From the IMG/VR virus record IMGVR_UViG_3300034061_004620: a DNA stretch of 64,000 nucleotides; one strand, 5' to 3'. Each line of letters starts with the position of its first letter. Within the stretch, counting starts at the first letter, position 1. Shown in pieces: positions 39,263 to 55,584 of this stretch. Both the position numbers and the translations under genes were made by a program. The notes under the pieces are model-generated. The model was given only the letters and a program-made list of their open reading frames with translations, was not told the origin of the DNA and searched no databases. Source of the DNA: a virus (Duplodnaviria > Caudoviricetes).

Positions 39263-39285
39263 AACAACTATTATTGGAGAAACAC

Positions 39286-40008
39286 ATGAAAGATTATTTA
39301 CACGATATCGTACAACACACTCACGGTCTTGGTTTTATTGATTTGATTAAAATTACCGGCACAGACTCTACAACAACTATTGATGCAGTTAGCGAAGATA
39401 GAATTGCCATTATTCAGGCTCAATTTCACAATCCTGTTCCAGAATTCATTGGCACATTTGGCATGCCAAACTTGGGTAAACTGAATACCATTCTCAACAT
39501 TCCTGAATACAAAGAAGATGCCTCTATTGTAATGACTCAAAAGAATGATGGCGAACCTGACGGAATTTCATTTAAAAATAAAAATGGTGATTTTAAAAAT
39601 GATTATCGACTGATGACTGCCAATGTAGTTAACGATAAATTAAAGACCGTAAAATTCAAAGGTGTCAAGTGGGGAGTAGAAATTGAACCAAGTGTAGCTG
39701 CCATTCAAAGATTAAAATTTCAAGCACAAGCAAACAGCGAAGAAACAACTTTTATTGCCAAAATTGAAAACAACAACTTGATATTTTATTTTGGTGATCA
39801 TAGTAGTCATGCTGGTAATTTTGTGTTTGCACACGATGTAGCAGGATCGCTAACCAAAGCATGGAATTGGCCGGTAGCTGCGGTAATTAGTATTTTAAGT
39901 CTACCAGGAGATAAAATGATTCGTTTCAGTGACGAAGGTGCTGCACAAATCACTGTTGATTCAGGTCTTGCGATCTACAATTATATTTTGCCAGCACAGA
40001 CTAAGTGA
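39286..40008 (+). CDS. Sliding clamp (T4 gp45-like)
   Basis: About 240 aa with two alpha/beta halves; near the polymerase; a clamp loader is present in the window. Confidence 0.6.
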   Translation: MKDYLHDIVQHTHGLGFIDLIKITGTDSTTTIDAVSEDRIAIIQAQFHNPVPEFIGTFGMPNLGKLNTILNIPEYKEDASIVMTQKNDGEPDGISFKNKNGDFKNDYRLMTANVVNDKLKTVKFKGVKWGVEIEPSVAAIQRLKFQAQANSEETTFIAKIENNNLIFYFGDHSSHAGNFVFAHDVAGSLTKAWNWPVAAVISILSLPGDKMIRFSDEGAAQITVDSGLAIYNYILPAQTK

Positions 40009-40670
40009 TAGTACATCCGTTACGTAATAATTATTGGACCCGAAGAGGTTACGTAACTGGTACGTGTATGTATCACAGTGAACTTAAACAGTGCTATATT
40101 AACATTCCAAAAAATGCAAGTAGTTTTTTAAGGGAAGTGTTTAAAGATACCGGTTGGAAACACATGCATCTTGGAATGACTATGGATATAGAAAACTACA
40201 TAGTAATATTACGTGATCCGGTTGAAAGATGGATTACGGGAATAGCGCAACATATCACAACCAACATCTTAGGTGAAAATTTTGGTAGTACACATTATCT
40301 TGAACAAAGTAATGAATTAGTCGATCGTTTGATTTTTGATCAAATAGTATTTGATGATCATACTGAACAGCAATCATGGTTTTTAGAACCATTTGATCTT
40401 AAAGATGGTGTATTTTTTTATTGTGATGCAAATCTCAATCAAAATCTTGATAGTTATTTTGATTATAAATTTAAATTCGCCAATAGGCCTTATGTGAATA
40501 CAAGTGCATCGCAGTTTGATAATCAGAACTTAGTTGCTTATTTCAAGAAGCTTGTATACAATAACAAAACATATTATAATAGAATTAAATCCTACTTTCT
40601 CAGAGATTACGACTTAATAAACTCTGTAAACTTCTATGACTCAAGACAATCTTACAGCCAAACAAAATGA
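40005..40670 (+). CDS. Sulfotransferase-family protein
   Basis: PAPS-binding motifs YINIPKNASS and ILRDPVERWITG. Confidence 0.75.
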   Translation: MIVHPLRNNYWTRRGYVTGTCMYHSELKQCYINIPKNASSFLREVFKDTGWKHMHLGMTMDIENYIVILRDPVERWITGIAQHITTNILGENFGSTHYLEQSNELVDRLIFDQIVFDDHTEQQSWFLEPFDLKDGVFFYCDANLNQNLDSYFDYKFKFANRPYVNTSASQFDNQNLVAYFKKLVYNNKTYYNRIKSYFLRDYDLINSVNFYDSRQSYSQTK

Positions 40671-42201
40671 CTATGCAGTGTTTTTGCCTGCTATATCTGG
40701 ATTCTATGCAACTTTTATAGGAAAACAACGTGTTAACAATGACTATGTTGATCCTGCTCGTATGCCGCAGGCATTACAAGACATGGAGCAATTCAACTGG
40801 CTTAACAGCCATCACGCTCTCTTTCCGTACCGATGGAGTCTTTACTCCGGAGGACACGCCAACCTTGATCTAACCAAAGAAGACCCTTCGGAAGATATGG
40901 TTCGTAAGCGAGAACCAGGTACTTTTATGTTAGGTGACTCTGGCGGGTTCCAAATTGCCAAAGGCTTGTGGGAGGGCGACTGGAAAGCCAACTCAGGATG
41001 TCCTCGGGCACAAAAGAAAAGAGAATTAGTACTTAAATGGTTGGATGGTATTGCAGACTATGGAATGATTTTAGATATTCCAACTTGGGTAATTCACGAC
41101 AAAAAGGCAAGTATCGCATGTGGAATAACTACATTACACGAAGCCGTTGCTGCAACCAAATACAATAATCAATATTTTATGCAGCATCGCAAAGGTAAGA
41201 ACAATGGCGGAGCAAGATTTTTAAACGTGCTGCAAGGCGATAATCATACATCAGCCGACGAGTGGTATCAAGAAATGAAAGAGTTTTGTGATCCTAATAA
41301 ATACCCAGACACACACTTTGATGGGTGGGCCATGGGCGGACAGAACATGTGTGATGTTCATCTTGTTCTAAAACGATTGGTAGAACTTAGATATGACAAC
41401 CTGTTACAAGAAGGAGTGCATGATTGGATGCACTTTTTAGGCACAAGTAAACTTGAATGGGCAGTGTTGCTTACTGTAATACAGCGGTCAGTACGTAAAT
41501 ATGTCAATCCAAAATTTACCATTTCATTTGATTGTGCAAGTCCTTTTCTGGCTACTGCCAACGGTCAAGTTTACCACCACATCGATTTACCTCACAATGG
41601 TAAATGGTGCTACCGTATGAGCCCTATAGTAGATGATAAAAAATATGCTACTGATACCAGACTATATGGCCAAGCTGTGCTGGCAGATGGACTTATTGAT
41701 ATTTTTGATGAAAGTCCTATTAGTAAAAATATGATGATGAAGGATGTGTGTGTTTACAAACCTGGAGATCTGAACAAGAATGGCAAAGAAGGTCGAACCA
41801 GCTGGGATAGTTTTAGTTACATGCTGCTCATGGGGCATAATGTTTGGACCCACATAGAAGCAGTTCAACGAGCCAACAGAGAATTTGATGCTGGATTTCA
41901 TCCTGCCATGATGCGACATGATCATATCGAAGCAGAATATTTTGAAGATATCGTAGAACGTATATTTGCAGCGCCAACAAAGCAAACTGCATTAGATATA
42001 GTCAATGCCGACAAATATGCCAGACCAAAAGGTTATTGGGAACAGATTGTCGGCACAAGAGGTTTCAAAGGAGAAAAAACTACTAATTCTTTCACAATGG
42101 CAAATCATCATTTAGAGATAGAAGGATCAGTTAAAGTGGATAAAGTTAAAAAAGAACAACCAAAACCAATTTTATTGCCTAATTTATTTGAGGAGACCTA
42201 A
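40636..42201 (+). CDS. dpdA: tRNA-guanine-transglycosylase-like protein, probable DNA base-exchange enzyme (DpdA-like)
   Basis: TGT signature LGDSGGFQ, plus LDIP, VLQG, GWAMGG, HFLG and SFDCASP; clustered with folE/queD/queE. Confidence 0.75.
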   Translation: MTQDNLTAKQNDYAVFLPAISGFYATFIGKQRVNNDYVDPARMPQALQDMEQFNWLNSHHALFPYRWSLYSGGHANLDLTKEDPSEDMVRKREPGTFMLGDSGGFQIAKGLWEGDWKANSGCPRAQKKRELVLKWLDGIADYGMILDIPTWVIHDKKASIACGITTLHEAVAATKYNNQYFMQHRKGKNNGGARFLNVLQGDNHTSADEWYQEMKEFCDPNKYPDTHFDGWAMGGQNMCDVHLVLKRLVELRYDNLLQEGVHDWMHFLGTSKLEWAVLLTVIQRSVRKYVNPKFTISFDCASPFLATANGQVYHHIDLPHNGKWCYRMSPIVDDKKYATDTRLYGQAVLADGLIDIFDESPISKNMMMKDVCVYKPGDLNKNGKEGRTSWDSFSYMLLMGHNVWTHIEAVQRANREFDAGFHPAMMRHDHIEAEYFEDIVERIFAAPTKQTALDIVNADKYARPKGYWEQIVGTRGFKGEKTTNSFTMANHHLEIEGSVKVDKVKKEQPKPILLPNLFEET

Positions 42202-42414
42202 ATGTCATATAAGGGAAAAATCAAACATCTTGAAGAAATGCATCGTTTACTTGATAAACAGATTAACGAAATGCAAACCAATCATCCAGGAGTAGAAGTT
42301 GAACATCTTGCTGAATTAAAAAAGAAAAAATTGCTTTATAAAGATGAAATCAGTAGACTTAATAAATTACAATGGGAAGAAGAAAATGAACGAGTGGGCT
42401 ACGGCGACCAATAA
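42202..42414 (+). CDS. DUF465/YdcH-like coiled-coil protein
   Basis: HLEEMHRLLDKQI...LAELKKKKLLYKDEI. Confidence 0.7.
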   Translation: MSYKGKIKHLEEMHRLLDKQINEMQTNHPGVEVEHLAELKKKKLLYKDEISRLNKLQWEEENERVGYGDQ

Positions 42415-42420
42415 TCTTAA

Positions 42421-43968
42421 ATGACCAAAGTTGTAATATTAAGCGTCCCATGGTGTGAAGCTTTTCCTTTGGTAGCGCCTGCATTATTAAGTAAATGTCT
42501 ACAACAGGCAGGCATTGACTCAGCTGGATTAGATTTAAATATAAAATTTATTCAAGAATTTTATAATAAACCCTATTGGAGTAATTTAAAGATTTTTTTG
42601 TCAAATGGATATGTAGATAAACAACTAAATTATCGTAGAATGATAATTGATTTATTTAAATTTATAAAAAGAGAACTTTTGGCAATTAATTTAGAACATA
42701 ACCCAACTCATTTAGGTTTGTCTATCTTTACAAACGAAAGTATTAACTTTAGCTATCTTTTAATTCATTATATCCGAAAATATCTCCCCCATGTAAAAAT
42801 TATTGTAGGCGGACGAGGTATAGAATCTGATTGCTCTTTAGAAAAAAAACCGCATTACCAGAAATATTTTGATCACGGTCTGGCAGATTTGATAGTAGTT
42901 GGTGATGCCGAAACAGCCATAATTGAATCTATTAAATCCAATCATGATGGCATATATTTTTCTAAAAAACAAAATCAACAAGACCTTGATAATATTCCGG
43001 CTCCGGACTGGAGTCACTATAATTTTTCTTTATATAGTACGCTTACAGACGAATTTGCACCTGCTGATAGATTAGCCGCCACATTTAATCCACAGGCTAT
43101 ATCTATTACTGCAAGTAAAGGATGTGTAAGAAAATGTACATTTTGTGATGTTGCCAATTATTGGCCAAACTACATTTATCGAGACGGTGCAAATGTAGCA
43201 AGAGATATAATAACCACTTACAGAACAACTGGAATTAAAAATTTTGAATTTACAGATAATTTGATAAATGGTAGTATCTCTCACTACAGAAAAATGAACA
43301 CTATCTTGGCAGAAACTATTCCAAGAGAAATTGCCTATAGTGGGTATGCGATTTTTAGACAAAAAGAATCAATGCCGGCCGAGGATTTTAGGTTAGCCTC
43401 ATTAGCAGGATGCGAAGCATGGGGAGTTGGTGTTGAATCAGGAAGCGAAACTGTTAGATACCACATGCGGAAAAAATTCAATAACGACGACTTAGATTTT
43501 GGAGTCAAACAATTACACAAAAACAATATAAGACAAACTTGGTGTTTAATGGTTGGATATCCAACTGAAACTGAGGATGATTTTAAAGAAACACTAAATT
43601 TATTACGTAGATACAAGAATTATAATAACAACGGTATGATTTCATTAAATATTACACAACCGTTTCAATTAAATCAAAATACTCCTTTGATGCAAGAAGA
43701 AGAATTTACATCAACACTTAATTGGGCACACGAAGGAGATAGTAATCACCATGAAAGATTTTTTTGGGTCACTCCTGGAAATCCTGGTAACAATTTCTTA
43801 TCACGATATAAAAGATGGCACCAGCTTATTGATTTATCCGAAGAATTAGGTTATTCTTACCATATGCGAATGGCTCTGTTATTTTCAAAATGGCGAGACG
43901 AACTTGAAAGTTTAAAACAAATTTATGAACAATCAAATAAAAAAATTTTCTTTTTCAGTCGAGCTTAA
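42421..43968 (+). CDS. B12-binding-domain radical SAM protein
   Basis: N-terminal cobalamin-binding-like domain (GLSIF, IVGG, VVGDAE), SKGCVRKCTFC, GVESGS, LMVGYPTET. Confidence 0.85.
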   Translation: MTKVVILSVPWCEAFPLVAPALLSKCLQQAGIDSAGLDLNIKFIQEFYNKPYWSNLKIFLSNGYVDKQLNYRRMIIDLFKFIKRELLAINLEHNPTHLGLSIFTNESINFSYLLIHYIRKYLPHVKIIVGGRGIESDCSLEKKPHYQKYFDHGLADLIVVGDAETAIIESIKSNHDGIYFSKKQNQQDLDNIPAPDWSHYNFSLYSTLTDEFAPADRLAATFNPQAISITASKGCVRKCTFCDVANYWPNYIYRDGANVARDIITTYRTTGIKNFEFTDNLINGSISHYRKMNTILAETIPREIAYSGYAIFRQKESMPAEDFRLASLAGCEAWGVGVESGSETVRYHMRKKFNNDDLDFGVKQLHKNNIRQTWCLMVGYPTETEDDFKETLNLLRRYKNYNNNGMISLNITQPFQLNQNTPLMQEEEFTSTLNWAHEGDSNHHERFFWVTPGNPGNNFLSRYKRWHQLIDLSEELGYSYHMRMALLFSKWRDELESLKQIYEQSNKKIFFFSRA

Positions 43969-44308
43969 TAATCTTTGCGACAGGTATGTTATAACTGTAA
44001 ACGAACAATTAATTCCAGTCACAAATGAAGCCATAAATTATTATGAATTAGATTTAGATATAACAAAACGCAATATAATCAAAGTAACCTACCTTGAAAA
44101 GAATAAAGATTCATTTTTACACATCAAACAACTTGAATTTAATAAAATACCATTGTATAATTTAGACATATTTTCAACTTATCGCGTAAAAAACACAGTT
44201 AAAAAAACTTACGGATGGATGGATGAACTTGGTACATATACAATAAATCTTCACAGCAATGCAGTTACTCAAAATTTACTAACTTTTTTATTATCAAAGA
44301 AAGAATAA
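43925..44308 (+). CDS. Hypothetical beta-rich protein
   Basis: ORF overlapping the radical SAM end; pattern similar to the 24423 protein. Confidence 0.55.
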   Translation: MNNQIKKFSFSVELNNLCDRYVITVNEQLIPVTNEAINYYELDLDITKRNIIKVTYLEKNKDSFLHIKQLEFNKIPLYNLDIFSTYRVKNTVKKTYGWMDELGTYTINLHSNAVTQNLLTFLLSKKE

Positions 44309-44309
44309 A

Positions 44310-44822
44310 ATGAACAGAAATGGTCATACTAACACAAAATTATTTGTAGGACAAGAAGTGGAACATACCCCTGCACATGGTCAAAAAACTTTGTTTGTTG
44401 TAGGAATTCAGGATAAAGACTTGATCGAAGCTGCCGCGGTTGCTCATAAATGTACACATGTGTATTTTGGTGCCAATCAAAGCTTTCCTAAAATTAATAC
44501 TAATAGTGCAGAGTGGACTCGTTGGGAGAATATGATATTTCCTTTTCTTGGCCAAGGCTATTGGTGTACATTGGATATTGATGTAAATCAAGTTGAAGGT
44601 TTATTGGAAAGTGGACTCACCGAACATTATAAATTTATTCCCATGATATCGGTAAAATTACCCTATTTACAACAATTAGGATATAATGCTACAATTAAAC
44701 TTGATGACAAAGATTTTGCTGCAACTAATCCTGGTGTATGGTGTCATCAAGTTCATGACTTAGCAAGTAGAAGAAAGTTTACCGATTGGTCAAAATATAC
44801 AAGTGACGAGATTATAAGATGA
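44310..44822 (+). CDS. Hypothetical protein within the deazaguanine cluster
   Basis: 170 aa; FVGQEVEHTPAHGQKTLFVVG and HVYFGANQSF. Confidence 0.7.
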   Translation: MNRNGHTNTKLFVGQEVEHTPAHGQKTLFVVGIQDKDLIEAAAVAHKCTHVYFGANQSFPKINTNSAEWTRWENMIFPFLGQGYWCTLDIDVNQVEGLLESGLTEHYKFIPMISVKLPYLQQLGYNATIKLDDKDFAATNPGVWCHQVHDLASRRKFTDWSKYTSDEIIR

Positions 44823-45253
44823 ATCAAACACAAAGAGAATCAGCGGATAGAATTATGCAATTTGCCGCAAGACAAATATGGGTAACCTTCCAAAAAGAAG
44901 GTATTCATAAATACCCGGCAGCATTGGAGGATCCCGGTCTTGCGGATGTTAATTTTCTTGGTTACCCTCACCGTCACATCTTTCACTTCAGGGTGTCAAT
45001 TGATGTGTTCCACAATGATCGGGACATCGAGTTCATCCAATTCAAACGATGGCTGGAAAGCCTGTATAATAGTGGGAACCCGGTTTTAGAACTGGATTAT
45101 AAAAGCTGTGAAATGATAGCTGACGATTTATACGTCCAAATAGCTAACAGATATCCCAACAGAAATGTTACAATAAGCGTAAGTGAAGACAATGAAAATG
45201 GTTGTACGATTACTTACGCCACTCATCAACCCTCTCTATCAATAAAAATTTAA
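44819..45253 (+). CDS. QueD-paralogous T-fold protein (DpdL-like candidate)
   Basis: GIHKYP...GYPHRHIFHF metal-binding His pattern, DIEFIQFKR, SCEMIA, VSEDNENG; this is a 6-PTPS/QueD-like layout. Confidence 0.65.
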   Translation: MNQTQRESADRIMQFAARQIWVTFQKEGIHKYPAALEDPGLADVNFLGYPHRHIFHFRVSIDVFHNDRDIEFIQFKRWLESLYNSGNPVLELDYKSCEMIADDLYVQIANRYPNRNVTISVSEDNENGCTITYATHQPSLSIKI

Positions 45254-45263
45254 GGAGAACAAA

Positions 45264-45482
45264 ATGGCCGCAAAATGGCTAAAAAAATATCTGGTAATGA
45301 AGCCGGAAGTGTCAACTATCTTTGACGATCTTGATCGTTATCGAGAATTTTGTGTCAAATACGGACATCCATTTGATGAGCGTCATTTATACAATGAGCG
45401 TAGTCCGTGGGGCGAATTTCAGAGGAGTTTACGAGGTCGCGAACCACGTAATATGTGGTATGTTAAAAAAGAACGTACATGA
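45264..45482 (+). CDS. Hypothetical protein
   Basis: AAGGAG SD. Confidence 0.65.
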   Translation: MAAKWLKKYLVMKPEVSTIFDDLDRYREFCVKYGHPFDERHLYNERSPWGEFQRSLRGREPRNMWYVKKERT

Positions 45483-45742
45483 CATTAGTTCTTAACTTTA
45501 TTAAAAATCACATTCCGGCATTTGAAATGCTGGGTGTGATTATGCGTATCATAAGTTTTACATTAGTATCATGGTTAGGGTCTGCAAGTCCGTTTATGTT
45601 TGTTTGGATATTTAATACAGTTGATGCCGTACTATTAACTTATTGTGCTATGCTTAAACAAGATCGTGCATACACCTTACTAAACGCTTTTTGGATTGTG
45701 GTTGGTATCATTGGCATTGCAAGAGCAGGAGGATGGTTATGA
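45479..45742 (+). CDS. Three-TM membrane protein
   Basis: Three hydrophobic helices. Confidence 0.65.
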   Translation: MTLVLNFIKNHIPAFEMLGVIMRIISFTLVSWLGSASPFMFVWIFNTVDAVLLTYCAMLKQDRAYTLLNAFWIVVGIIGIARAGGWL

Positions 45743-46203
45743 GTGGTGCACTGAGAGAAAAAGACGCGGCCGATTTTGATTTAGAACAATTTACAGAAAT
45801 GTTTGATCGGGCTATAACCAGTGATGATCCCAGGGTAAAGAACGCCTTACGTCAACTGATGATGATGGTTATTCTTACCGATACCGATGATCACGAAGGC
45901 AAGCAAAGAGCCAGTCATGGTCCTCTGCGTAGAATGCAACAAGACATGCGTGACCAGTTCAGATGGATTCAGCGACTTGAAAATGACTTAGAGAGTTTAA
46001 AAAAACAAATGGCGTACAACGAAACACAAATTAAAGTACAAAGTGAACCTGGATTTAAAGCCCAAGGCGTCTCTCCCAGTGAATATTGGCAAAAGGCTAT
46101 AGCACAAACAAACATGCTAAAGCCACAAGGATTAGAAAATATTTCTAACAACGCATTACAAGGTCTAAATATCAAGGTCGCCGCAGATACAGGAGAAAAA
46201 TAA
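45739..46203 (+). CDS. Hypothetical coiled-coil protein
   Basis: AGGAGG SD before ATG 45739. Confidence 0.65.
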   Translation: MSGALREKDAADFDLEQFTEMFDRAITSDDPRVKNALRQLMMMVILTDTDDHEGKQRASHGPLRRMQQDMRDQFRWIQRLENDLESLKKQMAYNETQIKVQSEPGFKAQGVSPSEYWQKAIAQTNMLKPQGLENISNNALQGLNIKVAADTGEK

Positions 46204-47399
46204 TGCGTAAGTTATGGTACATGGGCTTAGAGCCTTACAAAGCAAGATACACCCTGCAACTACAAGAATGGAATCGTGCTGTATTTGAACGTAGAGGTAT
46301 TGACTATGAGATTGTGCCTGGCGAAACGCTTAGTAATGATCAGGCTATTGTAACCGGCCAAGTGTTAGATGCACATGGTCGTACATATTTTGGCATGAGT
46401 CAGTTAATGAATCTCATTCGTCTAATGAAAGCAGGAGAAGTTACCAATGAAGATGTTATCTACTTTGAAGACATGTTTCAACCCGGCATCGAGAGCTTAC
46501 CTTACATTCTTGATCAAGTGTCTGCTAACATGCGTCCTCGCATTGCCGTTCGTTGTCTTGCACAAACTATTGACCCAGATGACTTTGTTCATGTCTGGGG
46601 CATGCAGGAATGGATGGGGCATTATGAAAAGATGGTAGATAGCTTTGCCGACATTGTGTTAGCTACCAATGAAGAAATGGTCATGCACATGAAAGTGGCA
46701 GGATGGAAGGCTCCCGTCTATAACATCTCAGGACTGGCATTTGGTAAGGATGAAGTTCGCAGTCGAGTGCCAGGAATGCTAAAACCTTTTGTAGAAAGAG
46801 CATTTCGTGTAGGCTTTGCTGCTCGTTGGGATCAAGAGAAACAGCCCGACTTCTACATGGATCTAATTGAAGAATATTATAAACTGCAAGCACTACCGTA
46901 TAACGATTGGCCTCAAGTAGAATTCTGTGTGTTTAGTGGCAGCAAGTTGCGTTCCAATAATAGTTCGTATATGGAACGTACACGTAGACTACAAGCAGAA
47001 GGTAAACTGACTGTATATGAAGATCTTGAAAAGAATGACTACTACGCTTTACTCAACGATACGCGAGTGCTTTTTAATTGTGCTCTTCAGGATTGGGTGT
47101 CAAATACTGCCAGCGAGGCGGACGCTCTTGGGGCTAATATCTTATACCCCGCATACCGTAGCTTTCCCGAAGCTTTTGCAAATGATCCTGAACGACTTTA
47201 TGTCCCGTGGTCGTTACGAGATGCTGTACAAAAACTTGTCCCCCTCCTCCAGCGTCCGCATGCAAACATGGGTAAATTTAGTGCGTGGAATGATGGTACC
47301 ATTGATCGTGTCTGTGACATAATCGAAGGCAAAGGCGAACAGTGGTTGCGTATGACCACCGATTATAGAAAACATACGCATGAATCAAAATACTACTAA
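46203..47399 (+). CDS. GT-B fold glycosyltransferase
   Basis: VGFAARWDQEKQP, YYALLNDTRVLFNCALQDWVSNTASEADALG..LYPAYRSFPE; a GT4-like C-terminal domain. Confidence 0.8.
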   Translation: MRKLWYMGLEPYKARYTLQLQEWNRAVFERRGIDYEIVPGETLSNDQAIVTGQVLDAHGRTYFGMSQLMNLIRLMKAGEVTNEDVIYFEDMFQPGIESLPYILDQVSANMRPRIAVRCLAQTIDPDDFVHVWGMQEWMGHYEKMVDSFADIVLATNEEMVMHMKVAGWKAPVYNISGLAFGKDEVRSRVPGMLKPFVERAFRVGFAARWDQEKQPDFYMDLIEEYYKLQALPYNDWPQVEFCVFSGSKLRSNNSSYMERTRRLQAEGKLTVYEDLEKNDYYALLNDTRVLFNCALQDWVSNTASEADALGANILYPAYRSFPEAFANDPERLYVPWSLRDAVQKLVPLLQRPHANMGKFSAWNDGTIDRVCDIIEGKGEQWLRMTTDYRKHTHESKYY

Positions 47400-47409
47400 G
47401 GAGATAGAA

Positions 47410-47601
47410 ATGTTAAAAATTAAAGACAAACTTGAAAAAATTAATGATAATTTTAATGTATACATGTACGATAATGGATACATGATGGAAATTAGTGGTC
47501 GCGACGATAACGGAGATTGGGCTACCGCAAAAATTATCTGTAACACGTTAGATGATTTAGTTACTTTAATTAAAGAAACATCAACATTAGAGCGCGATTA
47601 A
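47410..47601 (+). CDS. Hypothetical protein
   Basis: AAGGAG SD before ATG 47410. Confidence 0.65.
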   Translation: MLKIKDKLEKINDNFNVYMYDNGYMMEISGRDDNGDWATAKIICNTLDDLVTLIKETSTLERD

Positions 47602-47604
47602 TAA

Positions 47605-48570
47605 ATGAAAGTGGTAGTTACTGGAGGATGTGGCTACATTGGTAGTCATATCGCTCGTTATCTCAAACAACACAATGAAAATTGTAGTGTGTACGTTATT
47701 GATCGTGAGCGTAGAGACCATACCTTAAAGAATGTTGATGGTTTCTTACATACCGATTATGTTTCTCGACAGACTTTATTGTGGTTAGATGAACTACAAC
47801 CAGACGTCATTGTTCATTGTGCCGGCGACATATCTGTTAGAGAAAGTGTAGAAGATCCTGCGAAATATTATGACAACAATGTTGCAAGGACAATTACCTT
47901 TTTAAATCATGTTAAAAATTATAAAAAGAAACCGCAAATTCTTTTTAGTAGCAGTGCCAGTGTGTACGGCAATCCTGATCGCGTTCCATTGGTTGAAACA
48001 GATCGGATAAAACCAATTAGTCCATATGGACACACTAAAGATATAATAGAACAAGTTTTATTAAATTATAATCAAGCATACGGATTACCAGCAGTTTGTT
48101 TCAGATATTTTAATGCAGCAGGTGCGGAACCCAATAACTATGATTTAGGTCAAGCTGCAGGAGCGGGACATATCATTGCAAGACTGTTAGAATCAAAAAT
48201 ACGTGACGAGTATTTCACATTAAATGGTGTAGATTTCAATACTGCTGACAGAACTTGCGTACGAGATTATATTCATGTGTGGGATCTTGCTGACGCACAT
48301 AATCGAGCTATACATTGGAACAAGAACCAACAATTTGCAGTATTCAATTTAGGTACTAATAGTGGCATCAGCAATCAGCAAATTATAGATTACATCTCTA
48401 TAAATTATGGTCCGTTAAAAATACACGTAGGCCCTCGCAGACCAGGGGATCCTGATCAATTGATAGCTGATGCTGCGCTGGCAAATAACGTTCTTGGATG
48501 GCAACCAAATCATTCAACCTTGAATCAAATCGTTGATTCAGCCTACAAATGGTACACTCGTGGCATTTGA
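47605..48570 (+). CDS. galE: UDP-glucose 4-epimerase-like extended SDR
   Basis: TGGCGYIGSH, FSSSASVYG, YGHTK, RYFNAAG, RDYIHVWDLADAH, RRPGDP. Confidence 0.9.
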   Translation: MKVVVTGGCGYIGSHIARYLKQHNENCSVYVIDRERRDHTLKNVDGFLHTDYVSRQTLLWLDELQPDVIVHCAGDISVRESVEDPAKYYDNNVARTITFLNHVKNYKKKPQILFSSSASVYGNPDRVPLVETDRIKPISPYGHTKDIIEQVLLNYNQAYGLPAVCFRYFNAAGAEPNNYDLGQAAGAGHIIARLLESKIRDEYFTLNGVDFNTADRTCVRDYIHVWDLADAHNRAIHWNKNQQFAVFNLGTNSGISNQQIIDYISINYGPLKIHVGPRRPGDPDQLIADAALANNVLGWQPNHSTLNQIVDSAYKWYTRGI

Positions 48571-49147
48571 AGAAATTGCACAATTTGAACAACTATTAGC
48601 AAAGAAAACTGGGGCACCTTATGCCATCATGACCGATTGTTGCACTCATGCAATAGAGCTTTGCTTGAGATATCAACGTGTGAATCAAGTGGCCTTTACA
48701 GCCTATACCTATTTGAGTATTCCCATGCTCATGCACAAATTAGGTATCATGTACATGCACACCGATGAAGCATGGATTGGCGAATATCAATTCCACGGAA
48801 CCAACATATGGGATAGTGCCAGAAGATTAGAAAACAACATGTATAGACCTGGTATGATGCAATGTTTGAGTTTTGGTCATAACAAGCCTTTACAAATAGG
48901 CCATGGTGGTGCTATACTATTAGATGACAAAGAGGCATATGATGTTTTATTACAACAGAGATATGATGGACGGAACCTTAGTATCCAACCATGGCAAGCC
49001 CAGCAGGTTTTCAAGGTGGGTTACCATTATAGGCCAACTATTGAAGATGCAAGGATCGGTTTAGAAAAATTGTATTTTGTTAACGAACCGCCTAAATATC
49101 ACGACTATCCAGATCTTAGAAACATACAAATTATTGGAGACACTTAA
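48560..49147 (+). CDS. Short DegT/DnrJ-family PLP aminotransferase
   Basis: CCTHAIEL, WDSA, SFGHNKPL (PLP Lys), GHGGAIL; only about 195 aa; likely GTG start. Confidence 0.75.
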   Translation: MAFEEIAQFEQLLAKKTGAPYAIMTDCCTHAIELCLRYQRVNQVAFTAYTYLSIPMLMHKLGIMYMHTDEAWIGEYQFHGTNIWDSARRLENNMYRPGMMQCLSFGHNKPLQIGHGGAILLDDKEAYDVLLQQRYDGRNLSIQPWQAQQVFKVGYHYRPTIEDARIGLEKLYFVNEPPKYHDYPDLRNIQIIGDT

Positions 49148-49911
49148 TGGTTTATAACAAAGTATACGAAAGCAATGACGAAACAGGATTAGATGCAATG
49201 GCCGGTGACGGTGGTTACAAAGAATCAACATTGTCAGCTGCTATTCGTGCCAGAATGAAACGTGACGGTAAAAGGTATTGGGCCGGAGACAACATTAGTG
49301 ATTACTTACACGAAAGCGATCGAGAACATTTGATCAATGAGGCTACCGAAGCATTTGAGAAGGTGTTAGACACGCTACTAATTGATAGAGAAACAGATCC
49401 TAACAGCCAAGGTACTGCACGCCGACTTGCAAAAATGTACTTCAATGAATTGATGGCAGGAAGATATGACCCAACACCTAACGCAACTGCGTTTCCAAAT
49501 GACACCGAAGGAGCATACGACGGCATGCTCGTCGTCCGTTCTGAGCTTAAGAGTGTTTGCAGCCATCATCACCAACCTGTTACAGGCGTTGCATATATTG
49601 GCATTATTGCTGGTCCCAAACTCATTGGGCTTTCTAAATACACCCGAATTGCCCAATGGTGCGCTCGTCGTGGAACGCTACAAGAAGAACTTTGCATGGA
49701 CATTGCACGAGAAATTGAATTTGCAACTGGAAGTAAGGATGTGGCTGTATATATCCAGGCGACGCACGGATGCTGCGAGAATAGAGGAATTATGGCACAC
49801 AGTAGTCTTACCCAGACCACAGTGTTAAGAGGTGCGTTTAAGGATGATCAAAGCACCAAGAAAGAGTTCTTTGACAACATTAAACTACAACAGGAGTTTG
49901 CTCCGCGATGA
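49147..49911 (+). CDS. folE: GTP cyclohydrolase I
   Basis: SVCSHHHQP, GLSKYTRI, LQEEL, HGCCENRG. Confidence 0.95.
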   Translation: MVYNKVYESNDETGLDAMAGDGGYKESTLSAAIRARMKRDGKRYWAGDNISDYLHESDREHLINEATEAFEKVLDTLLIDRETDPNSQGTARRLAKMYFNELMAGRYDPTPNATAFPNDTEGAYDGMLVVRSELKSVCSHHHQPVTGVAYIGIIAGPKLIGLSKYTRIAQWCARRGTLQEELCMDIAREIEFATGSKDVAVYIQATHGCCENRGIMAHSSLTQTTVLRGAFKDDQSTKKEFFDNIKLQQEFAPR

Positions 49912-50156
49912 AATGTATCACTTGCGATCGAGAATACTCAACGACCTGCGACTGGAATCAAGGTCGTTGCCCCCATCATCCGCCATTGCTAAACGTACAA
50001 CCAAAAGATACCAGTAGAGGACATTTTTATGTTAGTCTTGCAAAAAGTGCTATTAGAATATTTGCAGGCGGCGTACTAATGGCCGGTAACATTTGGTTAG
50101 CTGGTTTATGTATTGTGTTAGCCGAATTATTAGGTGTTATTGAAGAGATTGTTTAA
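49908..50156 (+). CDS. Hypothetical protein with Cys motif and C-terminal TM segments
   Basis: CITC...C....RCPHH followed by a hydrophobic tail. Confidence 0.6.
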   Translation: MKCITCDREYSTTCDWNQGRCPHHPPLLNVQPKDTSRGHFYVSLAKSAIRIFAGGVLMAGNIWLAGLCIVLAELLGVIEEIV

Positions 50157-50181
50157 GATAATTATTAATAGGAGACAACAA

Positions 50182-50859
50182 ATGGAATACGCATTGCCTT
50201 ATAGAACAGCCACCGAAATCAACAGTGCCATGGGTCGTGTATACGGTAATATGGCTTTAGCAGTTATTACCAGTATGATTGTTAGTATGTTTGTGGCATC
50301 TAACGCAGACTTAATGGCTTTCTTTTTTACCGGAATTGTAAAATGGATCGTGATCTTTGCTCCACTGGCGGCAATTTTTGCAGTAGGTTATGTGTTAGGA
50401 AATAATCCAAGCAAAGTTACCGCTCAACTATGTTTGCACGGCTTTGCGGCACTTATGGGCCTTAGTTTTGCAACTATTTTTGTAATCTATACAACAGCAA
50501 GTATTGTGAACGCATTTCTTGGTGCAGCAGTATTGTTTAGTACAATGAGTTTCTATGGCTATTTTACTAAAAAAAGTTTAGATAGTTTTGGAAAATATTT
50601 GATAGTAGGACTTATTGCAATTATTATAGTTAGCATTATTAATATTTTTATCGGATCGTCTGCATTGCAGATGTTCATCAGTGCCGCAGCAGTCTTAATC
50701 TTTTTAGGGTTAACTGCCTACGACACACAAAAAATTCGAGAGCAAATTATGGAAAGTTCAAGCCCGGCCATTGAAGCGATGGGCGCATTAACATTGTATT
50801 TAGACTTTATTAATTTGTTCTTGAGTCTATTACAATTATTCGGAGGTAGGAGAGAATAA
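50182..50859 (+). CDS. Bax inhibitor-1/YccA family membrane protein
   Basis: Seven TM segments; AYDTQKIR and GALTLYLDFINLFLSLLQL. Confidence 0.9.
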   Translation: MEYALPYRTATEINSAMGRVYGNMALAVITSMIVSMFVASNADLMAFFFTGIVKWIVIFAPLAAIFAVGYVLGNNPSKVTAQLCLHGFAALMGLSFATIFVIYTTASIVNAFLGAAVLFSTMSFYGYFTKKSLDSFGKYLIVGLIAIIIVSIINIFIGSSALQMFISAAAVLIFLGLTAYDTQKIREQIMESSSPAIEAMGALTLYLDFINLFLSLLQLFGGRRE

Positions 50860-50865
50860 TAATAA

Positions 50866-51114
50866 ATGTCAGATAATAATAATAACAATAATAATGACGA
50901 CAACGATGTCAAAGCAAATTTAAAAAAGTTTAAACCTAAAAAACCAAAAATTACGGTTCCGGAAGAGTTTTTAAAAGGAGCCAACAGTTACGATGATAAA
51001 CTTATGTTAGTAAAATACCTAACTGAAAAGGAAAAAGGTCGAGTATTACTAATTTTTAAAAAAATGATAGCTCAAGGTATGGCAGAATCGAAGAAAAAGA
51101 AGGGTTTGAAATAA
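50866..51114 (+). CDS. Hypothetical basic protein with N-terminal poly-Asn
   Basis: MSDNNNNNNNDDND from AAT/AAC repeats. Confidence 0.6.
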   Translation: MSDNNNNNNNDDNDVKANLKKFKPKKPKITVPEEFLKGANSYDDKLMLVKYLTEKEKGRVLLIFKKMIAQGMAESKKKKGLK

Positions 51115-52200
51115 TTAATCAAAGGGCATCAAAAGTTCATTAAGAATTTCTTGATGCCAATTTGTTTCCAGAAAATGATGCAAGTTATAATCCAAAATAT
51201 TTTGCAATTGAGCATAAACAAGTGTAGGATCTTTACTGCATAATTGTTCAACTTGATTCCATGCCATTTGCCATCTTACCCTGTCGTTGGGCTCATCATC
51301 ATATGATTCGTCAATAACAGTCTTTCCATCAATATCTATAACATCACCAAAAGTCTTAAATCCTAAGGATCTTAAATTACGTAGATAATATTGTCCACAA
51401 AAAGCTACAAAAGGACGACGGGCCAATATTGGTTTTATCACTTTTTCAGTGTATTGATTATAACTATTAAACGCTGTTGTTTCTGCCACAATTGAATAGT
51501 ATGAATCGTTATAGATATAATACGGAATTATTGCATATAGAGACATACCAACGACGCCACCATAGTTTATGTCTGGTACAAATCTATATAGATTGTTAAA
51601 TGTGTTTTTTTTATCATAATAATCTCCCCATGATCCCTGTGCGGGATCATCTTTGTAGTATGTAAAATAAACTTTGTTTTTGTAAATACTCTTGAGATAT
51701 AAATTGTGTACGATGTCCCTGTGATTTTTACGAGATCCAAGAAGACAATCAAACATGTAAGATCTTGGTTGCCAAGATCTTGGTAACTCTATTTTGGTAG
51801 TTAAGTCTTTGGCCCATTGATATTGGGCATAATAATTGCGAGAATCAACAAACCAAGAAATTTTAGTTTTAAAGTTATCACTGTTTTCGTCGTTGGTTAC
51901 TATATCAGTAAAAATTTTAATTTTTTTATTAGATATAATATTAATAAATTTTAGGATATAAGGATCAGTAGGTTCGGAGATGTTTAACAGCAATTTTTTT
52001 GTTTTTGGTAACAACTTATCTATTATAGGCAAGTACGAAGCATAAAAATTGGTGTAAAAACTGATACCAATAGCATCACAATCATCTGGTAAAGTTTCTA
52101 TCCAATTGGTTAGATTGTATTGACAATAATTTGAAATCTTGTTGTGATCATGATCAACAAAAATTTCACTAAAAAAGTGTTCGAGAAAAATCTTTGACAT
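51115..52200 (-). CDS. Putative glycosyltransferase-like protein (GT10-like C-terminus)
   Basis: YSIVAETT...YTEKVIKPI...PF...LRSLGFKTF resembles the GT10 F.L.FEN...Y.TEK motif. Confidence 0.5.
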   Translation of the reverse strand: MSKIFLEHFFSEIFVDHDHNKISNYCQYNLTNWIETLPDDCDAIGISFYTNFYASYLPIIDKLLPKTKKLLLNISEPTDPYILKFINIISNKKIKIFTDIVTNDENSDNFKTKISWFVDSRNYYAQYQWAKDLTTKIELPRSWQPRSYMFDCLLGSRKNHRDIVHNLYLKSIYKNKVYFTYYKDDPAQGSWGDYYDKKNTFNNLYRFVPDINYGGVVGMSLYAIIPYYIYNDSYYSIVAETTAFNSYNQYTEKVIKPILARRPFVAFCGQYYLRNLRSLGFKTFGDVIDIDGKTVIDESYDDEPNDRVRWQMAWNQVEQLCSKDPTLVYAQLQNILDYNLHHFLETNWHQEILNELLMPFD

Positions 52201-52222
52201 TTAAATAATAATGCTTTAATAT
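52194..52222 (+). promoter_or_regulatory. Sigma70-type promoter with nested TAAATA; divergent TAAATA on the minus strand at 52228-52237
   Basis: TTGACA-17 bp-TAATAT; TAAATA at 52202. Confidence 0.65.
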
Positions 52223-52245
52223 ATAGGTATTTATTTAGGAAAATT

Positions 52246-53037
52246 ATGAACATAGGTATAGTCGGAATGGGCTATGTTGGGCGGGCAGTTCAGGCATCGT
52301 GGTTGGGCTCTCAACACAAAGTGAAATATTATGATCCTGCTGTGGACGGATCGGTGAGTGATTTACAAGAATTAGTTAGTGGTAATCCGTCGGCGATTTT
52401 TATATGCGTACCTACACCTTCTATAGATACTGGCGAATGTGATCTTAGTATTATAATAACAACATTAGATCAAATAAAAACAACGTATTCAGGTATGATT
52501 GTTATCAAAAGCACAGTACCACCAGATTTTTGGCAGGCTTATATCGCACATGATAACATCTTTCATGTGCCTGAATTTTTAGTAGCAAGTCGGGCCATTC
52601 AAGATTATCTTAATCCTGAATTTATTTTTATTGGTGGAAATAAAAGTCAGACTCATAAAGTTTCACAATTACTTGCTTCAAGTGCCGTTAACACAGCCGT
52701 TCCTATATATTATACAGATCTAATCACTGCAAGTCTTGTGAAATATTTTATGAATACCTTTTTAGCTACCAAAGTAACAGTACTAAACCAGTTCAGTCAA
52801 CTGAGCAACGCAATTGGTGCCAATTGGGATGATTTTACTCAAATGATTGAAATAGATAATAGAATGGGATCGAGTCATACTCAAGTTCCCGGTCCAGACG
52901 GCAAATACGGATACGGAGGTGCTTGCTTTCCCAAGGATGTTCGTGCTATAATACATTCCATGCAAAAGCACAATGTAAGTGCAGGCATAATCGAAGCAGT
53001 TGACGCTGCTAACACACAATTCAGAGGTAAAGAATGA
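52246..53037 (+). CDS. UDP-glucose/GDP-mannose dehydrogenase-family protein (short form)
   Basis: GIVGMGYVG, FICVPTP, VIKSTVPP, PEFL, KYFMNTFLATKV, GYGGACFPKD. Confidence 0.85.
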   Translation: MNIGIVGMGYVGRAVQASWLGSQHKVKYYDPAVDGSVSDLQELVSGNPSAIFICVPTPSIDTGECDLSIIITTLDQIKTTYSGMIVIKSTVPPDFWQAYIAHDNIFHVPEFLVASRAIQDYLNPEFIFIGGNKSQTHKVSQLLASSAVNTAVPIYYTDLITASLVKYFMNTFLATKVTVLNQFSQLSNAIGANWDDFTQMIEIDNRMGSSHTQVPGPDGKYGYGGACFPKDVRAIIHSMQKHNVSAGIIEAVDAANTQFRGKE

Positions 53038-53585
53038 GCAAAGTATACTACACCAATAAACACGTTAGATCGTGGATACACTCTATCGTAAGAGAAATGA
53101 CGAATCAAAATTGGCGTCCAGATTATGTTGTAGGCTTGACCCGTGGTGGCCTTATACCTGCCGTCCTTATTAGTCAATATTTAGGCGTTCCTATGCATAC
53201 CCTGAATGTTAGTTTAAGAGATAGTAATTTAGGCCCAGAAAGCAATTTATGGATGGCCGAAGAAGCGTTTGGATATGTACCCGACGACGAAAGAAATGGT
53301 AGTGATACCAAAGTTGATCCAGCATATAGAAAAAAAATCTTAATCGTAGATGATATCAATGATACTGGTGCCACTCTCGAATGGATAAAAAATGATTGGA
53401 CCAGTGGATGTTTGCCCAACCACAGTGCGTGGGATAGCGTTTGGAATAAAACAACGCGATTTGCTGTGTTAGTGAACAACGAAGTAAGTAATTTTAAAGA
53501 CGTTGATTATGTTGGAACATCTATAAACAAACATGAAAATCCTATGTGGGCAGTATTTCCTTGGGAAGCGTGGTGGGAGAGATGA
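53034..53585 (+). CDS. Purine phosphoribosyltransferase (Gpt-like)
   Basis: VVGLTRGGLIPA, PRPP-binding ILIVDDINDTGATL, WAVFPWE. Confidence 0.85.
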   Translation: MSKVYYTNKHVRSWIHSIVREMTNQNWRPDYVVGLTRGGLIPAVLISQYLGVPMHTLNVSLRDSNLGPESNLWMAEEAFGYVPDDERNGSDTKVDPAYRKKILIVDDINDTGATLEWIKNDWTSGCLPNHSAWDSVWNKTTRFAVLVNNEVSNFKDVDYVGTSINKHENPMWAVFPWEAWWER

Positions 53586-53920
53586 TCGCCCTGCCGCCTG
53601 GTTGTACAGTAACTTATGCTGTCTGGGTTGATGTAGATAAACTTACAGACGAAATGGTAGAGTGGTATCGTCTAATAGATGGCGAAGTATATCAAGACCG
53701 ATGGTACGATACTCGAGGTCGAGAACAATCAGTGTATTATGTAAGTTACGGTAAAGGTAAAAGATGTCACCACCATCAAAACGGCGCAGGTGGTACTAAA
53801 TTACATTTTCATGGCGACGATGCCAGTGCTGCCAGTATGTTTATTATGAAATTTTTTGAACATGTAACAAATAGCAATTTGAGAGAACAAATGGAACGGT
53901 ATAGTCGTGAAATAGCATAA
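53582..53920 (+). CDS. Hypothetical protein
   Basis: ATG 53582 overlapping the upstream stop. Confidence 0.6.
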   Translation: MIALPPGCTVTYAVWVDVDKLTDEMVEWYRLIDGEVYQDRWYDTRGREQSVYYVSYGKGKRCHHHQNGAGGTKLHFHGDDASAASMFIMKFFEHVTNSNLREQMERYSREIA

Positions 53921-53927
53921 ATAGTTT

Positions 53928-54104
53928 ATGTGGTCCTTAATTATAATGTTACATGCTGTTTCTCCAAACGTTCCGCCATCAAAGGGTTCAATTAGTTTTG
54001 CTACACAAAATTTTGAAGAATGTCAAAAAGTGAGAGATCAGGTAATAAAATCATGGGCATCTGACCGGTATCGTGTTACAGCAAATTGTATCCCTAACAA
54101 ATAA
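53928..54104 (+). CDS. Small exported protein (58 aa)
   Basis: Translated by hand; TAAATA at 53918; hydrophobic N-terminus; two Cys. Confidence 0.6.
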   Translation: MWSLIIMLHAVSPNVPPSKGSISFATQNFEECQKVRDQVIKSWASDRYRVTANCIPNK

Positions 54105-54128
54105 AATAAAATAAATATTTTTCCACAC

Positions 54129-54196
54129 AGCGGCCTTTCTGGCATTCATCCCGCTTTACAAATTCTGCAAGCCTATGTTAATATTAATATAGGAGA
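54129..54196 (+). promoter_or_regulatory. Structured 5' leader of queD (riboswitch-like stem-loop plus SD-sequestering hairpin)
   Basis: AGCGG/CCGCT stem, 17-nt loop, A-rich tail, then the 9-bp hairpin CCTATGTTA-atat-TAATATAGG covering the SD. Confidence 0.5.
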
Positions 54197-54202
54197 ATCA
54201 AA

Positions 54203-54718
54203 TTGGCAAAGTTTTACTCAACAAAAACATATGGTAATGACCGAGGACTGTCATGTTGTTTTAGACAATGGCGTGCCACACACAGTCATTGTTCAACATT
54301 ACATGGCTACTCAATTGGCATTAAATTGATCTTTGAATGCGATACACTGGATGACAAAAACTGGTGTATGGACTTTGGTGGACTCAAAGAATTCAAAGCA
54401 TGGGCTGATCACATGTTTGATCACACCTTGATAGTCGCCGAAGATGATCCGATGTTGGATTTTTTTAAACACATGAACGAAATAGTAGATATTGATAGCA
54501 AAGATCATTTAAGTAAATTTCCATATGCACGTGGCGCATTATGTGATTTACGTATTGTGCCGGGTGTAGGATGCGAAATGTTTGCCAAACTATGCTATGA
54601 CAAAATGGCTGAACTATTAGCATCGGGAGAAATGCGTTATCCAATCAATCCAACAGTGCGTGTTAAATCAGTAGAAGTATTTGAACACGGTGCTAACTCA
54701 GCCACATACGAAGGTTAA
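54203..54718 (+). CDS. queD: 6-carboxy-5,6,7,8-tetrahydropterin synthase
   Basis: HCSTLHGYS, WCMDFGGLK, FDHTL, GCEMFA, VEVFEHGANSATY; TTG start. Confidence 0.88.
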   Translation: MAKFYSTKTYGNDRGLSCCFRQWRATHSHCSTLHGYSIGIKLIFECDTLDDKNWCMDFGGLKEFKAWADHMFDHTLIVAEDDPMLDFFKHMNEIVDIDSKDHLSKFPYARGALCDLRIVPGVGCEMFAKLCYDKMAELLASGEMRYPINPTVRVKSVEVFEHGANSATYEG

Positions 54719-54720
54719 CA

Positions 54721-55584
54721 ATGAGCAAAATTAAAGTAGCAGAACTGTTTTACAGCATACAAGGTGAAGGACGCTACATGGGTGTTCCCAGTGTGTTCTT
54801 GCGTACATTTGGATGTAATTTTAAATGTGCAGGCTTTGGTATGCCACGTGGCGAAATCAGTATTGAAGCAGATGATGTTGCATACACACATGCAAATATT
54901 GAATACTTTCACAAATATGAAGAACTTCCGTTAGTTAAAACTGGTTGTGATAGTTATGCCAGTTGGCACCCGGCATTCAAGGATCTTAGTCCGGTAATAG
55001 ATTCTGACGGTATTGTAGAGCGCATCATGCAAATTCTTCCGCACGGAAAATGGAAGGATGAACATCTGGTAATCACTGGTGGTGAACCTCTGTTAGGATG
55101 GCAGCGTAGTTATCCAGACTTGCTCAACCACCCACGTATGCGTAAGTTAAAAGAAATTACTTTTGAAACTAACGGTACTCAAGAGTTAACTGCTGATTTT
55201 GCAGATTATCTTGTACAATGGCAAATGCCTGGTCCTAATTTTTCTCGCGAGGTAACTTTTAGTGTAAGTGCAAAGTTACCAGCCAGTGGAGAATCGTGGA
55301 TCGAGGCTATTCGTCCAGAGATTGTACGTCAATATCAGACTATTGGACATACATATCTTAAGTTTGTTGTAGCCACAGATGAAGATGTAAAGGATGCGCT
55401 AAAGGCAGTTGAACAATATCGCAATGCCGGCTTTCATGGATCTGTTTATCTAATGCCCGTAGGTGGAGTAGAAAGTGTTTATTCATTAAATAATAGGCGA
55501 GTGGCAGAATTAGCTATGCGACATGGATTACGTTATAGTGATAGATTGCAAGTACCATTATTCAAGAACGAATGGGGAACGTAA
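54721..55584 (+). CDS. queE: 7-carboxy-7-deazaguanine synthase (radical SAM)
   Basis: ELFYSIQGEG, VFLRTFGCNFKC, CDS, ITGGEPLL, FETNGT. Confidence 0.9.
   Translation: MSKIKVAELFYSIQGEGRYMGVPSVFLRTFGCNFKCAGFGMPRGEISIEADDVAYTHANIEYFHKYEELPLVKTGCDSYASWHPAFKDLSPVIDSDGIVERIMQILPHGKWKDEHLVITGGEPLLGWQRSYPDLLNHPRMRKLKEITFETNGTQELTADFADYLVQWQMPGPNFSREVTFSVSAKLPASGESWIEAIRPEIVRQYQTIGHTYLKFVVATDEDVKDALKAVEQYRNAGFHGSVYLMPVGGVESVYSLNNRRVAELAMRHGLRYSDRLQVPLFKNEWGT

Follow-up and report, generated by a model that had tools for sequence, protein, structure and literature searches.

The 64-kb stretch of viral DNA recorded as IMGVR_UViG_3300034061_004620 (hereafter the window, meaning the whole of the 64,000 nucleotides analysed) carries, at positions 40636-55584, what is probably a 7-deazaguanine DNA-modification module of the DpdL type, which works without QueC and has been extended by a dedicated glycosyltransferase (GT). 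The host genome of this cluster is an uncultured freshwater jumbo phage. What is new in comparison with the system of the Cellulophaga phage phiST is the dedicated GT4-like enzyme and, often, a purine phosphoribosyltransferase (PRT). A first-pass annotation of the window had listed a gene resembling tRNA-guanine transglycosylase (TGT), folE, queD, queE, a second T-fold gene, a GT-B glycosyltransferase, galE, degT and a dehydrogenase gene, and all of these are indeed present on the + strand. The genes on which the argument depends are the following:

40636..42201, + strand: divergent TGT-superfamily transglycosylase (DpdA-like), 521 aa, recognized by a DSGG motif and TGT fold.
44819..45253, + strand: DpdL homologue (QueD-paralogue T-fold protein, proposed decarboxylase of 7-carboxy-7-deazaguanine, CDG), 144 aa, recognized by motif and tblastn.
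46203..47399, + strand: GT4-like GT-B glycosyltransferase, 398 aa, recognized by its structural model and D-x7-E motif.
49147..49911, + strand: GTP cyclohydrolase I (FolE), Pfam 4.4e-39, NCBIfam FolE 3.7e-40.
54203..54718, + strand: QueD (6-carboxytetrahydropterin synthase), Pfam PTPS 3.2e-16, TIGR03367 6.4e-9, under cut-off.
54721..55584, + strand: QueE (7-carboxy-7-deazaguanine synthase), phrog_2076 QueE-like 2.3e-50.

The window is phage DNA with genes densely packed on one strand, and the cluster is placed within the replication module. Relatives are of about 350 kb; two of them (G001 and G002), both complete, measure 353-355 kb and carry terminal repeats. When the 15-kb region was compared by megablast with 50,697 phage records, nothing matched; the two key proteins each have more than 7,000 close metagenome homologues, on contigs of up to ~350 kb, and 585 viral contigs encode the TGT-like transglycosylase. 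The stretch was detected in lake-water and freshwater sequencing runs from at least 14 further studies, and among the runs listed as containing it there was no RNA run and no Nanopore run. Gene order is kept in 80 related viral contigs, far from chance: a family B DNA polymerase (PolB), a methyltransferase (not in all), a clamp-like protein, DpdA, DUF465, a 170-aa protein, DpdL, small open reading frames (ORFs), GT and GalE, followed by a DegT-like protein (not in all), FolE, further genes, a protein resembling UDP-glucose dehydrogenase (UGDH-like; not in all), PRT, a 124-aa protein, QueD and QueE. Start/stop overlaps between the cluster genes are tight, suggesting co-expression. Occurrence counts below are out of 81 loci, except where informative relatives are named; these are the 39 related loci that reach at least 7 kb past the DpdA gene.

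FolE, QueD and QueE belong to established enzyme families that would together convert GTP to CDG. QueD keeps a C-x3-H-G-Y (Cys-x3-His-Gly) motif, and QueE, which matches the NCBIfam QueE models at 1e-10 to 4e-14, under their cut-offs, is common to all ten lineages compared. The first-pass annotation had described a deazaguanine cluster without QueC, and this is borne out by a Pfam scan of all sizeable window ORFs, in which neither QueC (PF06508) nor QueF was found. Nor did the QueC Pfam model have any match in PA5oct, BUCT-ZZ01 or the complete relative G002. Nothing in the window reached an Rfam gathering score, and 53800-54400 gave no preQ1-like match at E up to 10.

One sporadic partial match was seen in G001. 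There, ~46 kb from the cluster (L083:1057-1713), a 218-aa PP-loop ORF matches PF06508 partially at 29.7 bits; it contains the motif SGG-x-DS along with a Cys cluster resembling that of QueC, and has no counterpart in the window or in G002. Because ORFs of this type occur in 5 viral contigs against 585 with the transglycosylase, we regard them as sporadic. Some members of the lineage may, via this PP-loop protein, make a different deazaguanine.

The second T-fold gene bears on the fate of CDG. Residues 47-55 of its product, LGYPHRHIF, fit the published DpdL signature L-x3-HRH-x-F, which takes the place of C-x3-HGH in QueD (PMC10516641). By tblastn the protein is 37% identical to phiST gp040/CGPG_00067 (6e-12), 58.6% to its ACP17 homologue and 57% to that of PA5oct, and ten lineages share L47, H51, H53 and F55 without variation, as well as other His, Glu and Cys positions. 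Its profile is only weakly like QueD (HH E 6e-4, probability 28%) and the PDB PTPS homologue 2dj6 (E 0.65), so that its membership of DpdL is based on homology to the published family and on the motif. In phiST, FolE, QueD, QueE, DpdL and DpdA3 accompany full replacement of deoxyguanosine (dG) by 2'-deoxy-7-deazaguanosine (dDG), and DpdL is the proposed CDG decarboxylase (PMC10516641). The homologue in the window would likewise strip the carboxyl group from CDG, as proposed for phiST, to leave 7-deazaguanine. As the second T-fold gene is a dpdL, 7-deazaguanine is a likelier base than CDG; the first-pass annotation had named either, and of the two the former is now favoured and the latter less likely. 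The QueC-less layout belongs to the described set, being that of the DpdL-type phiST pathway giving dDG (PMC10516641).

Insertion of the base would fall to the TGT-like protein. Its AlphaFold model has a pLDDT of 89.6, the top 50 Foldseek matches are all TGT (probability 1.0), and it superposes on tRNA-guanine transglycosylases with VIA Z 19-20 and rmsd 4.2-4.5 over ~300 residues. Across 60 homologues of 26-59% identity there is no variation at D101, S102, G104, H266 and D299 (in FDCASP) and almost none at D147 (LD-x-P); we take the conserved aspartates, mapped by motif, to be the catalytic TGT residues (DSGG, the substrate Asp and the FDC-type nucleophile). The protein has no PHROG or NCBIfam match, phmmer against PDB sequences returned nothing, and feature-based leads point to the PF01702 and PF23859 families. 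It belongs to a large clade of 865 clusters (50% identity, E up to 0.001), which includes PA5oct EST35_0316, 34% identical. The DpdA clades align at profile level only: HH probability is 96.6% (E 6.6e-10) with the ACP17 DpdA of the ~420 aa clade, 94% with a 416-aa BUCT-ZZ01 protein, and a marginal 49% (E 1.8e-4, 81 columns) with the 259-aa DpdA3 of phiST. From the fold, motifs and genomic context, and from the modified G of phiST and PA5oct, we infer that this enzyme, encoded beside the DNA polymerase, exchanges guanine in phage DNA for 7-deazaguanine.

On one other contig (P0246), a 47%-identical member of the clade follows an intein-split PolB and lies two genes before a canonical QueC. The clade thus serves both QueC-type and DpdL-type pathways, and the substrate is not readable from clade membership. 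Two distant DpdA homologues (P0265, P0303) lie on short contigs with uninformative contexts.

Since every one of its closest solved structures is a tRNA-guanine transglycosylase, the enzyme might act on phage or host tRNA instead of DNA. We consider this very improbable, because the 64-kb window contains no tRNA gene, several lineages have the transglycosylase gene placed between DNA polymerase, clamp and RNase H, modified genomic G is found in relatives that share the gene set, and the Pfam TGT model does not match the protein.

Of special interest is the glycosyltransferase. Its model (pLDDT 80.7, pTM 0.80) shows a GT-B fold of two Rossmann domains, and the top Foldseek matches are MshA (TM 0.66), sucrose-phosphate synthase, OtsA and BshA, each with probability 1.0 and each a retaining enzyme of GT4/GT20; a cyanophage 'DNA alpha-GT' is found among the distant structural matches. 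The motif D297-x7-E305, in the C-terminal domain, is invariant in 26 relatives and takes the form E-x7-E in ACP17, PA5oct and Phosso. In UniProt, the ACP17 homologue is named a family 1 domain protein.

DpdL, GT and GalE occur together in all 39 informative relatives, where the GT gene begins 230-2,111 bp past DpdL. Beyond this group, tblastn with the GT retrieved eight phage records (BUCT-ZZ01, ACP17, PA5oct-type phages and the Xanthomonas phages BUDD and X1), every one of which falls within the 28 DpdL-bearing records among the 50,697, with GT and DpdL no more than ~2 kb apart. A GT directly follows DpdL in Sinorhizobium phage Phosso (HH probability 96.3%), and Burkholderia phage BCSR5 has a GT detected by hmmsearch at 4.7e-70. 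Four IMG/VR lineages were retrieved by the BUDD GT alone, and DpdL adjoins the GT in each; three of them also have a DpdA-type gene and FolE, and one has QueE-PRT-FolE in addition. The ACP17 GT, used as the sole query for related loci, matched itself only. Altogether the GT stands beside DpdL in at least ten phage lineages besides that of the window (hosts include cyanobacteria, Pseudomonas, Acidovorax, Xanthomonas, Burkholderia and Sinorhizobium), and it was never seen without DpdL. No GT lies near DpdL in phiST, Rhizobium phage RHph_I1_18 or Aeromonas phage Ahp1; the GT is an optional add-on to DpdL systems. The link between GT and deazaguanine cluster proposed in the first-pass annotation thus proves genuine, and such strict linkage indicates that the GT works in the deazaguanine pathway. 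A thymidylate-synthase-family gene was found in none of three of the five GT-bearing genomes (G002, BUCT-ZZ01, ACP17), which makes hydroxymethylpyrimidine, the usual acceptor of phage DNA GTs, unlikely.

It is conceivable, if somewhat unlikely, that these phages contain plain dDG as phiST does, and that GT, GalE and the short DegT-like and UGDH-like proteins serve a role unrelated to DNA, such as host envelope glycans or protein glycosylation, and simply lie in one early or replication operon with the cluster. After all, phiST is fully substituted without a GT, the GalE, DegT-like and UGDH-like genes are lineage-specific, and the GT is acidic with structural kin that act on small molecules. 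Sugar-nucleotide genes are, moreover, common auxiliary genes in large aquatic phages. However, the GT is found only beside DpdL, both in the 39 relatives and in the further lineages with their diverse hosts, and an envelope function is not expected of a gene that tracks DpdL across very different hosts.

If the GT does belong to the DpdL pathway, GalE would supply UDP-hexose and the GT would most likely place the sugar on the deazapurine, either as the free base before insertion or in DNA. Candidate sites are the exocyclic amine, the electron-rich pyrrole carbon or, on any CDG that is not decarboxylated, the carboxyl group. That phages with the GT beside DpdL (lake jumbo phages, PA5oct, ACP17, BUCT-ZZ01) have guanine replaced by a sugar-bearing 7-deazapurine made by the GT4-type enzyme is a tentative proposal, to which we give a sizeable though minority chance. 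The sugar would be attached either to the free base, which a roomy DpdA would then insert, or to the DNA itself, possibly through an unusual C- or N-glycosidic link to the pyrrole ring or the exocyclic amine.

Several points weigh against a DpdL module extended by a GT. Both key proteins escape the family models: the GT has no Pfam (Glycos_transf_1 fails E 0.01), PHROG or NCBIfam family, and the TGT-like protein stays above E 0.01 with every Pfam family, TGT PF01702 and DpdA PF23859 included. The QueC negative for the phage's own genome covers 64 kb of ~350 kb. The GT family is acidic (isoelectric point 5.3-6.2) and its closest structures glycosylate small molecules, not DNA, so that a free base or nucleotide fits as acceptor at least as well as DNA. 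7-Deazaguanine offers no hydroxyl for an O-glycoside. Furthermore, phiST makes dDG without a GT, which means that neither making nor inserting the base requires one, and the base chemistry of the GT-bearing phages is predicted. Finally, the decarboxylase activity of DpdL is proposed, and its reconstitution in E. coli failed in the original study: dDG was not obtained from dpdA and dpdL of phiST or ACP17, and its authors suggested that further enzymes may be required (PMC10516641).

That failed reconstitution is described as expressing only dpdL and dpdA (PMC10516641). In ACP17 (L084:12721-15404) the GT gene lies between the two, with a 4-bp overlap with dpdA and with dpdL starting directly after the GT stop; a GT in this position that was not among the expressed genes suggests why dDG was not formed.

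Three sugar-nucleotide genes accompany the GT in the window:

47605..48570, + strand: UDP-glucose 4-epimerase GalE, TIGR01179 285 bits against an equivalog cut-off of 262.3, in 39/39 informative relatives.
48533..49147, + strand: short DegT-family protein, 204 aa, Pfam DegT 1.9e-13 (50.8 bits, over cut-off), N-terminal part only.
52246..53037, + strand: short NDP-sugar dehydrogenase (UGDH-like), 263 aa, Pfam central domain 2.1e-21, N-terminal domain 8.4e-16.

The position of GalE next to the GT suggests a UDP-hexose donor. The DegT-like protein keeps the SF-x3-K lysine motif and has no C-terminal part (full-length family members have ~360-380 aa); the short form recurs in relatives at 193-224 aa (28 loci). 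The UGDH-like protein reaches 152.9 bits with TIGR03026, under the 189.8 cut-off, and lacks the C-terminal UDP-binding domain; GxGxxG and the catalytic Cys motif GGACFPKD are present. As the short lengths of both proteins are conserved in relatives, they are not fresh pseudogenes. Neither gene is present in the clusters of PA5oct, ACP17, BUCT-ZZ01, BUDD, Phosso or BCSR5, and the cluster encodes no 4,6-dehydratase or decarboxylase for a keto-sugar.

These genes had led the first-pass annotation to an amino- or uronic-sugar decoration, and one could imagine that CDG itself is inserted and then given such a sugar by the DegT-like and UGDH-like enzymes. QueC is absent from the window, G002, PA5oct and BUCT-ZZ01, the carboxylate of CDG could be esterified or amidated, and the DegT-like lysine motif and the UGDH-like catalytic cysteine are kept. 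Yet this is quite improbable: the conserved DpdL argues for removal of the carboxyl group, both sugar enzymes are short and missing a domain, neither occurs in the other GT-bearing lineages, there is no enzyme to make a keto-sugar, and the epimerase is a true GalE. With short, lineage-specific enzymes and no source of keto-sugar, the amino- or uronic-sugar version is weak.

The PRT gene immediately follows:

53034..53585, + strand: purine (xanthine/guanine-type) phosphoribosyltransferase, Pfam Pribosyltran 2.2e-12, 47 bits against a 26.3 cut-off.

It also matches NCBIfam XPRT (5e-8) and the PDB purine PRT 1vdm (7e-9), and has the phosphoribosyl pyrophosphate (PRPP) motif VDDINDTGAT. A PRT gene lies beside QueE or QueD in four lineages (the window's, BUCT-ZZ01, PA5oct and L092), and none was found near the cluster in ACP17, BUDD, Phosso or BCSR5. 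The enzyme might salvage the released guanine to GMP and GTP, the pathway's own precursor, or else ribosylate the deazapurine.

The latter activity would fit a pre-replicative route, in which the PRT couples CDG or 7-deazaguanine to PRPP, the nucleotide is reduced, phosphorylated and incorporated by the polymerase, and the TGT-like protein has a secondary or different role. ToyH and TubE offer a precedent for such a purine PRT in toyocamycin and tubercidin biosynthesis. The PRT's repeated placement beside QueE or QueD would suit this route, as would the MazG and deoxynucleotidase families in the window and the MazG and kinase-like gene of phiST. We nevertheless find it unlikely, because a TGT-fold enzyme whose catalytic aspartates are intact is retained in every lineage examined, four lineages have no PRT near the cluster, and guanine salvage after transglycosylation explains the PRT equally well. 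Pfam families in positions 1-20276 of the window include MazG pyrophosphohydrolase, NT5C deoxynucleotidase, a DNA_pol3_alpha-like domain, PhoH, DnaJ, an FkbM methyltransferase and another radical SAM (S-adenosylmethionine) protein; the first two might be relevant to a nucleotide-pool route.

Four further genes of the cluster have no assigned place in the pathway:

42202..42414, + strand: DUF465 small protein, Pfam DUF465 9e-11, in 39 related loci.
42421..43968, + strand: accessory B12-binding radical SAM enzyme (methyltransferase-like), Pfam Radical_SAM 1.1e-12 and B12-binding, in 7/81 loci.
44310..44822, + strand: 170-aa protein, 4-bp overlap with the dpdL start, in 75/81 loci.
53546..53920, + strand: 124-aa protein between the PRT gene and queD, in 13 related loci.

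The radical SAM enzyme matches an NCBIfam PhpK-family model at 3.5e-35, far under its cut-off. B12-binding radical SAM methyltransferases are a class that methylates unactivated carbons, and it is pure speculation that this one methylates the deazapurine in a sub-lineage. A 127-aa ORF after the radical SAM gene (region 42421-44308) occurs in 2/81 loci. The 170-aa protein matched nothing in Pfam, PHROG, NCBIfam or PDB and was not found in the other lineages compared, and the 124-aa protein has no family or PDB match. Two other genes look like passengers, present in some relatives only: a low-GC (0.33) 361-aa gene on the minus strand (51115-52200), with phage homologues only and a sub-threshold GT10-like lead (score 0.80), and a Bax-inhibitor-1/YccA membrane protein gene (50134-50859, Pfam 1.4e-50) inserted in the cluster.

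On either side lie genes of the replication module:

35598..38258, + strand: family B DNA polymerase, Pfam DNA_pol_B 4.9e-32, exonuclease domain 8.9e-19; the cluster starts just downstream.
38281..39237, + strand: class I SAM-dependent methyltransferase, Pfam Methyltransf_12 1.9e-11, in 61/81 loci, a lineage-specific neighbour.
39274..40008, + strand: sliding-clamp-like protein, phrog_12062 8.6e-38.
56825..57814, + strand: RNase H / 5'-3' exonuclease, Pfam 5_3_exonuc_N 2.3e-20, at the end of the replication module.

PolB also adjoins the cluster in PA5oct, ACP17, Phosso and BUDD, and RNase H is likewise a neighbour in PA5oct, ACP17 and Phosso. The clamp-like protein groups with PA5oct EST35_0314 and with a gene of Phosso whose annotation is sliding clamp. 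The window also encodes PhoH, MazG and tail-collar proteins.

To our knowledge, the sugar-decorated DNA bases described so far are all pyrimidines. If these phages do glycosylate their deazapurine, this would be the first case, in any genome, of a purine analogue bearing a sugar and a new class of DNA hypermodification, with a bearing on restriction and CRISPR evasion, on defence nucleases that sense modified DNA and on how environmental phage DNA is sequenced. Members of the lineage are common in lake water and metagenomes, and the GT is also borne by cultured phages, namely PA5oct, ACP17, BUCT-ZZ01, BUDD, X1, Phosso and BCSR5. In the literature we found no report of a glycosylated deazaguanine in DNA, nor of the DNA chemistry of ACP17.

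Among known systems, those that produce preQ0, dADG or dG+ (DpdA1/DpdA2, phage 9g and others) share with the window a TGT-family base exchange fed by FolE, QueD and QueE, but they require QueC, together with Gat-QueC or QueF, which was not found here (PMC6884629). The T4 alpha- and beta-glucosyltransferases and other phage DNA GTs also have a GT-B fold, use UDP-sugars and decorate phage DNA; they act on 5-hydroxymethylpyrimidines, whereas the acceptor proposed here is a purine analogue, and they show no close relation to our GT in sequence or structure. A different parallel is provided by QTMAN and QTGAL, which glycosylate queuosine, itself a 7-deazaguanine, in tRNA. Here too a GT4-type enzyme modifies a 7-deazaguanine derivative in nucleic acid, but the acceptor is the cyclopentenediol of queuosine, which the pathway in the window could not make. 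A QTMAN-like cluster is a weak, feature-based (language-model) lead for the GT, for which there is no alignment.

The phiST system is similar in having FolE, QueD, QueE, DpdL and a TGT-superfamily enzyme beside the replicase, and no QueC. It differs in that it has no GT4 glycosyltransferase, GalE or purine PRT and instead has MazG and a small kinase-like protein, encoded between FolE and DpdA3; moreover, its DpdA3 has 259 aa, compared with 521 aa in the window. The Acidovorax phage ACP17 and the T4-like Synechococcus phage BUCT-ZZ01 have DpdA-type, GT and DpdL genes adjacent, together with FolE, QueD and QueE. BUCT-ZZ01 also has a PRT, and its GT is 63.5% identical to that of the window; the DpdA of both phages belongs to the shorter clade of ~420 aa. 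In the Pseudomonas jumbo phage PA5oct (Wroclawvirus), PolB, clamp-like protein, DpdA-like enzyme, GT, DpdL, PRT, QueE and RNase H follow in the same order as in the window, with DpdA, GT and DpdL in a row; it infects a different host, and its cluster has no GalE, DegT-like or UGDH-like gene. The DNA of PA5oct, a target of END nucleases, is reported to carry a modified G: it resists cleavage at G-containing restriction sites and is cut by nucleases that sense modified G (PMC12191111).

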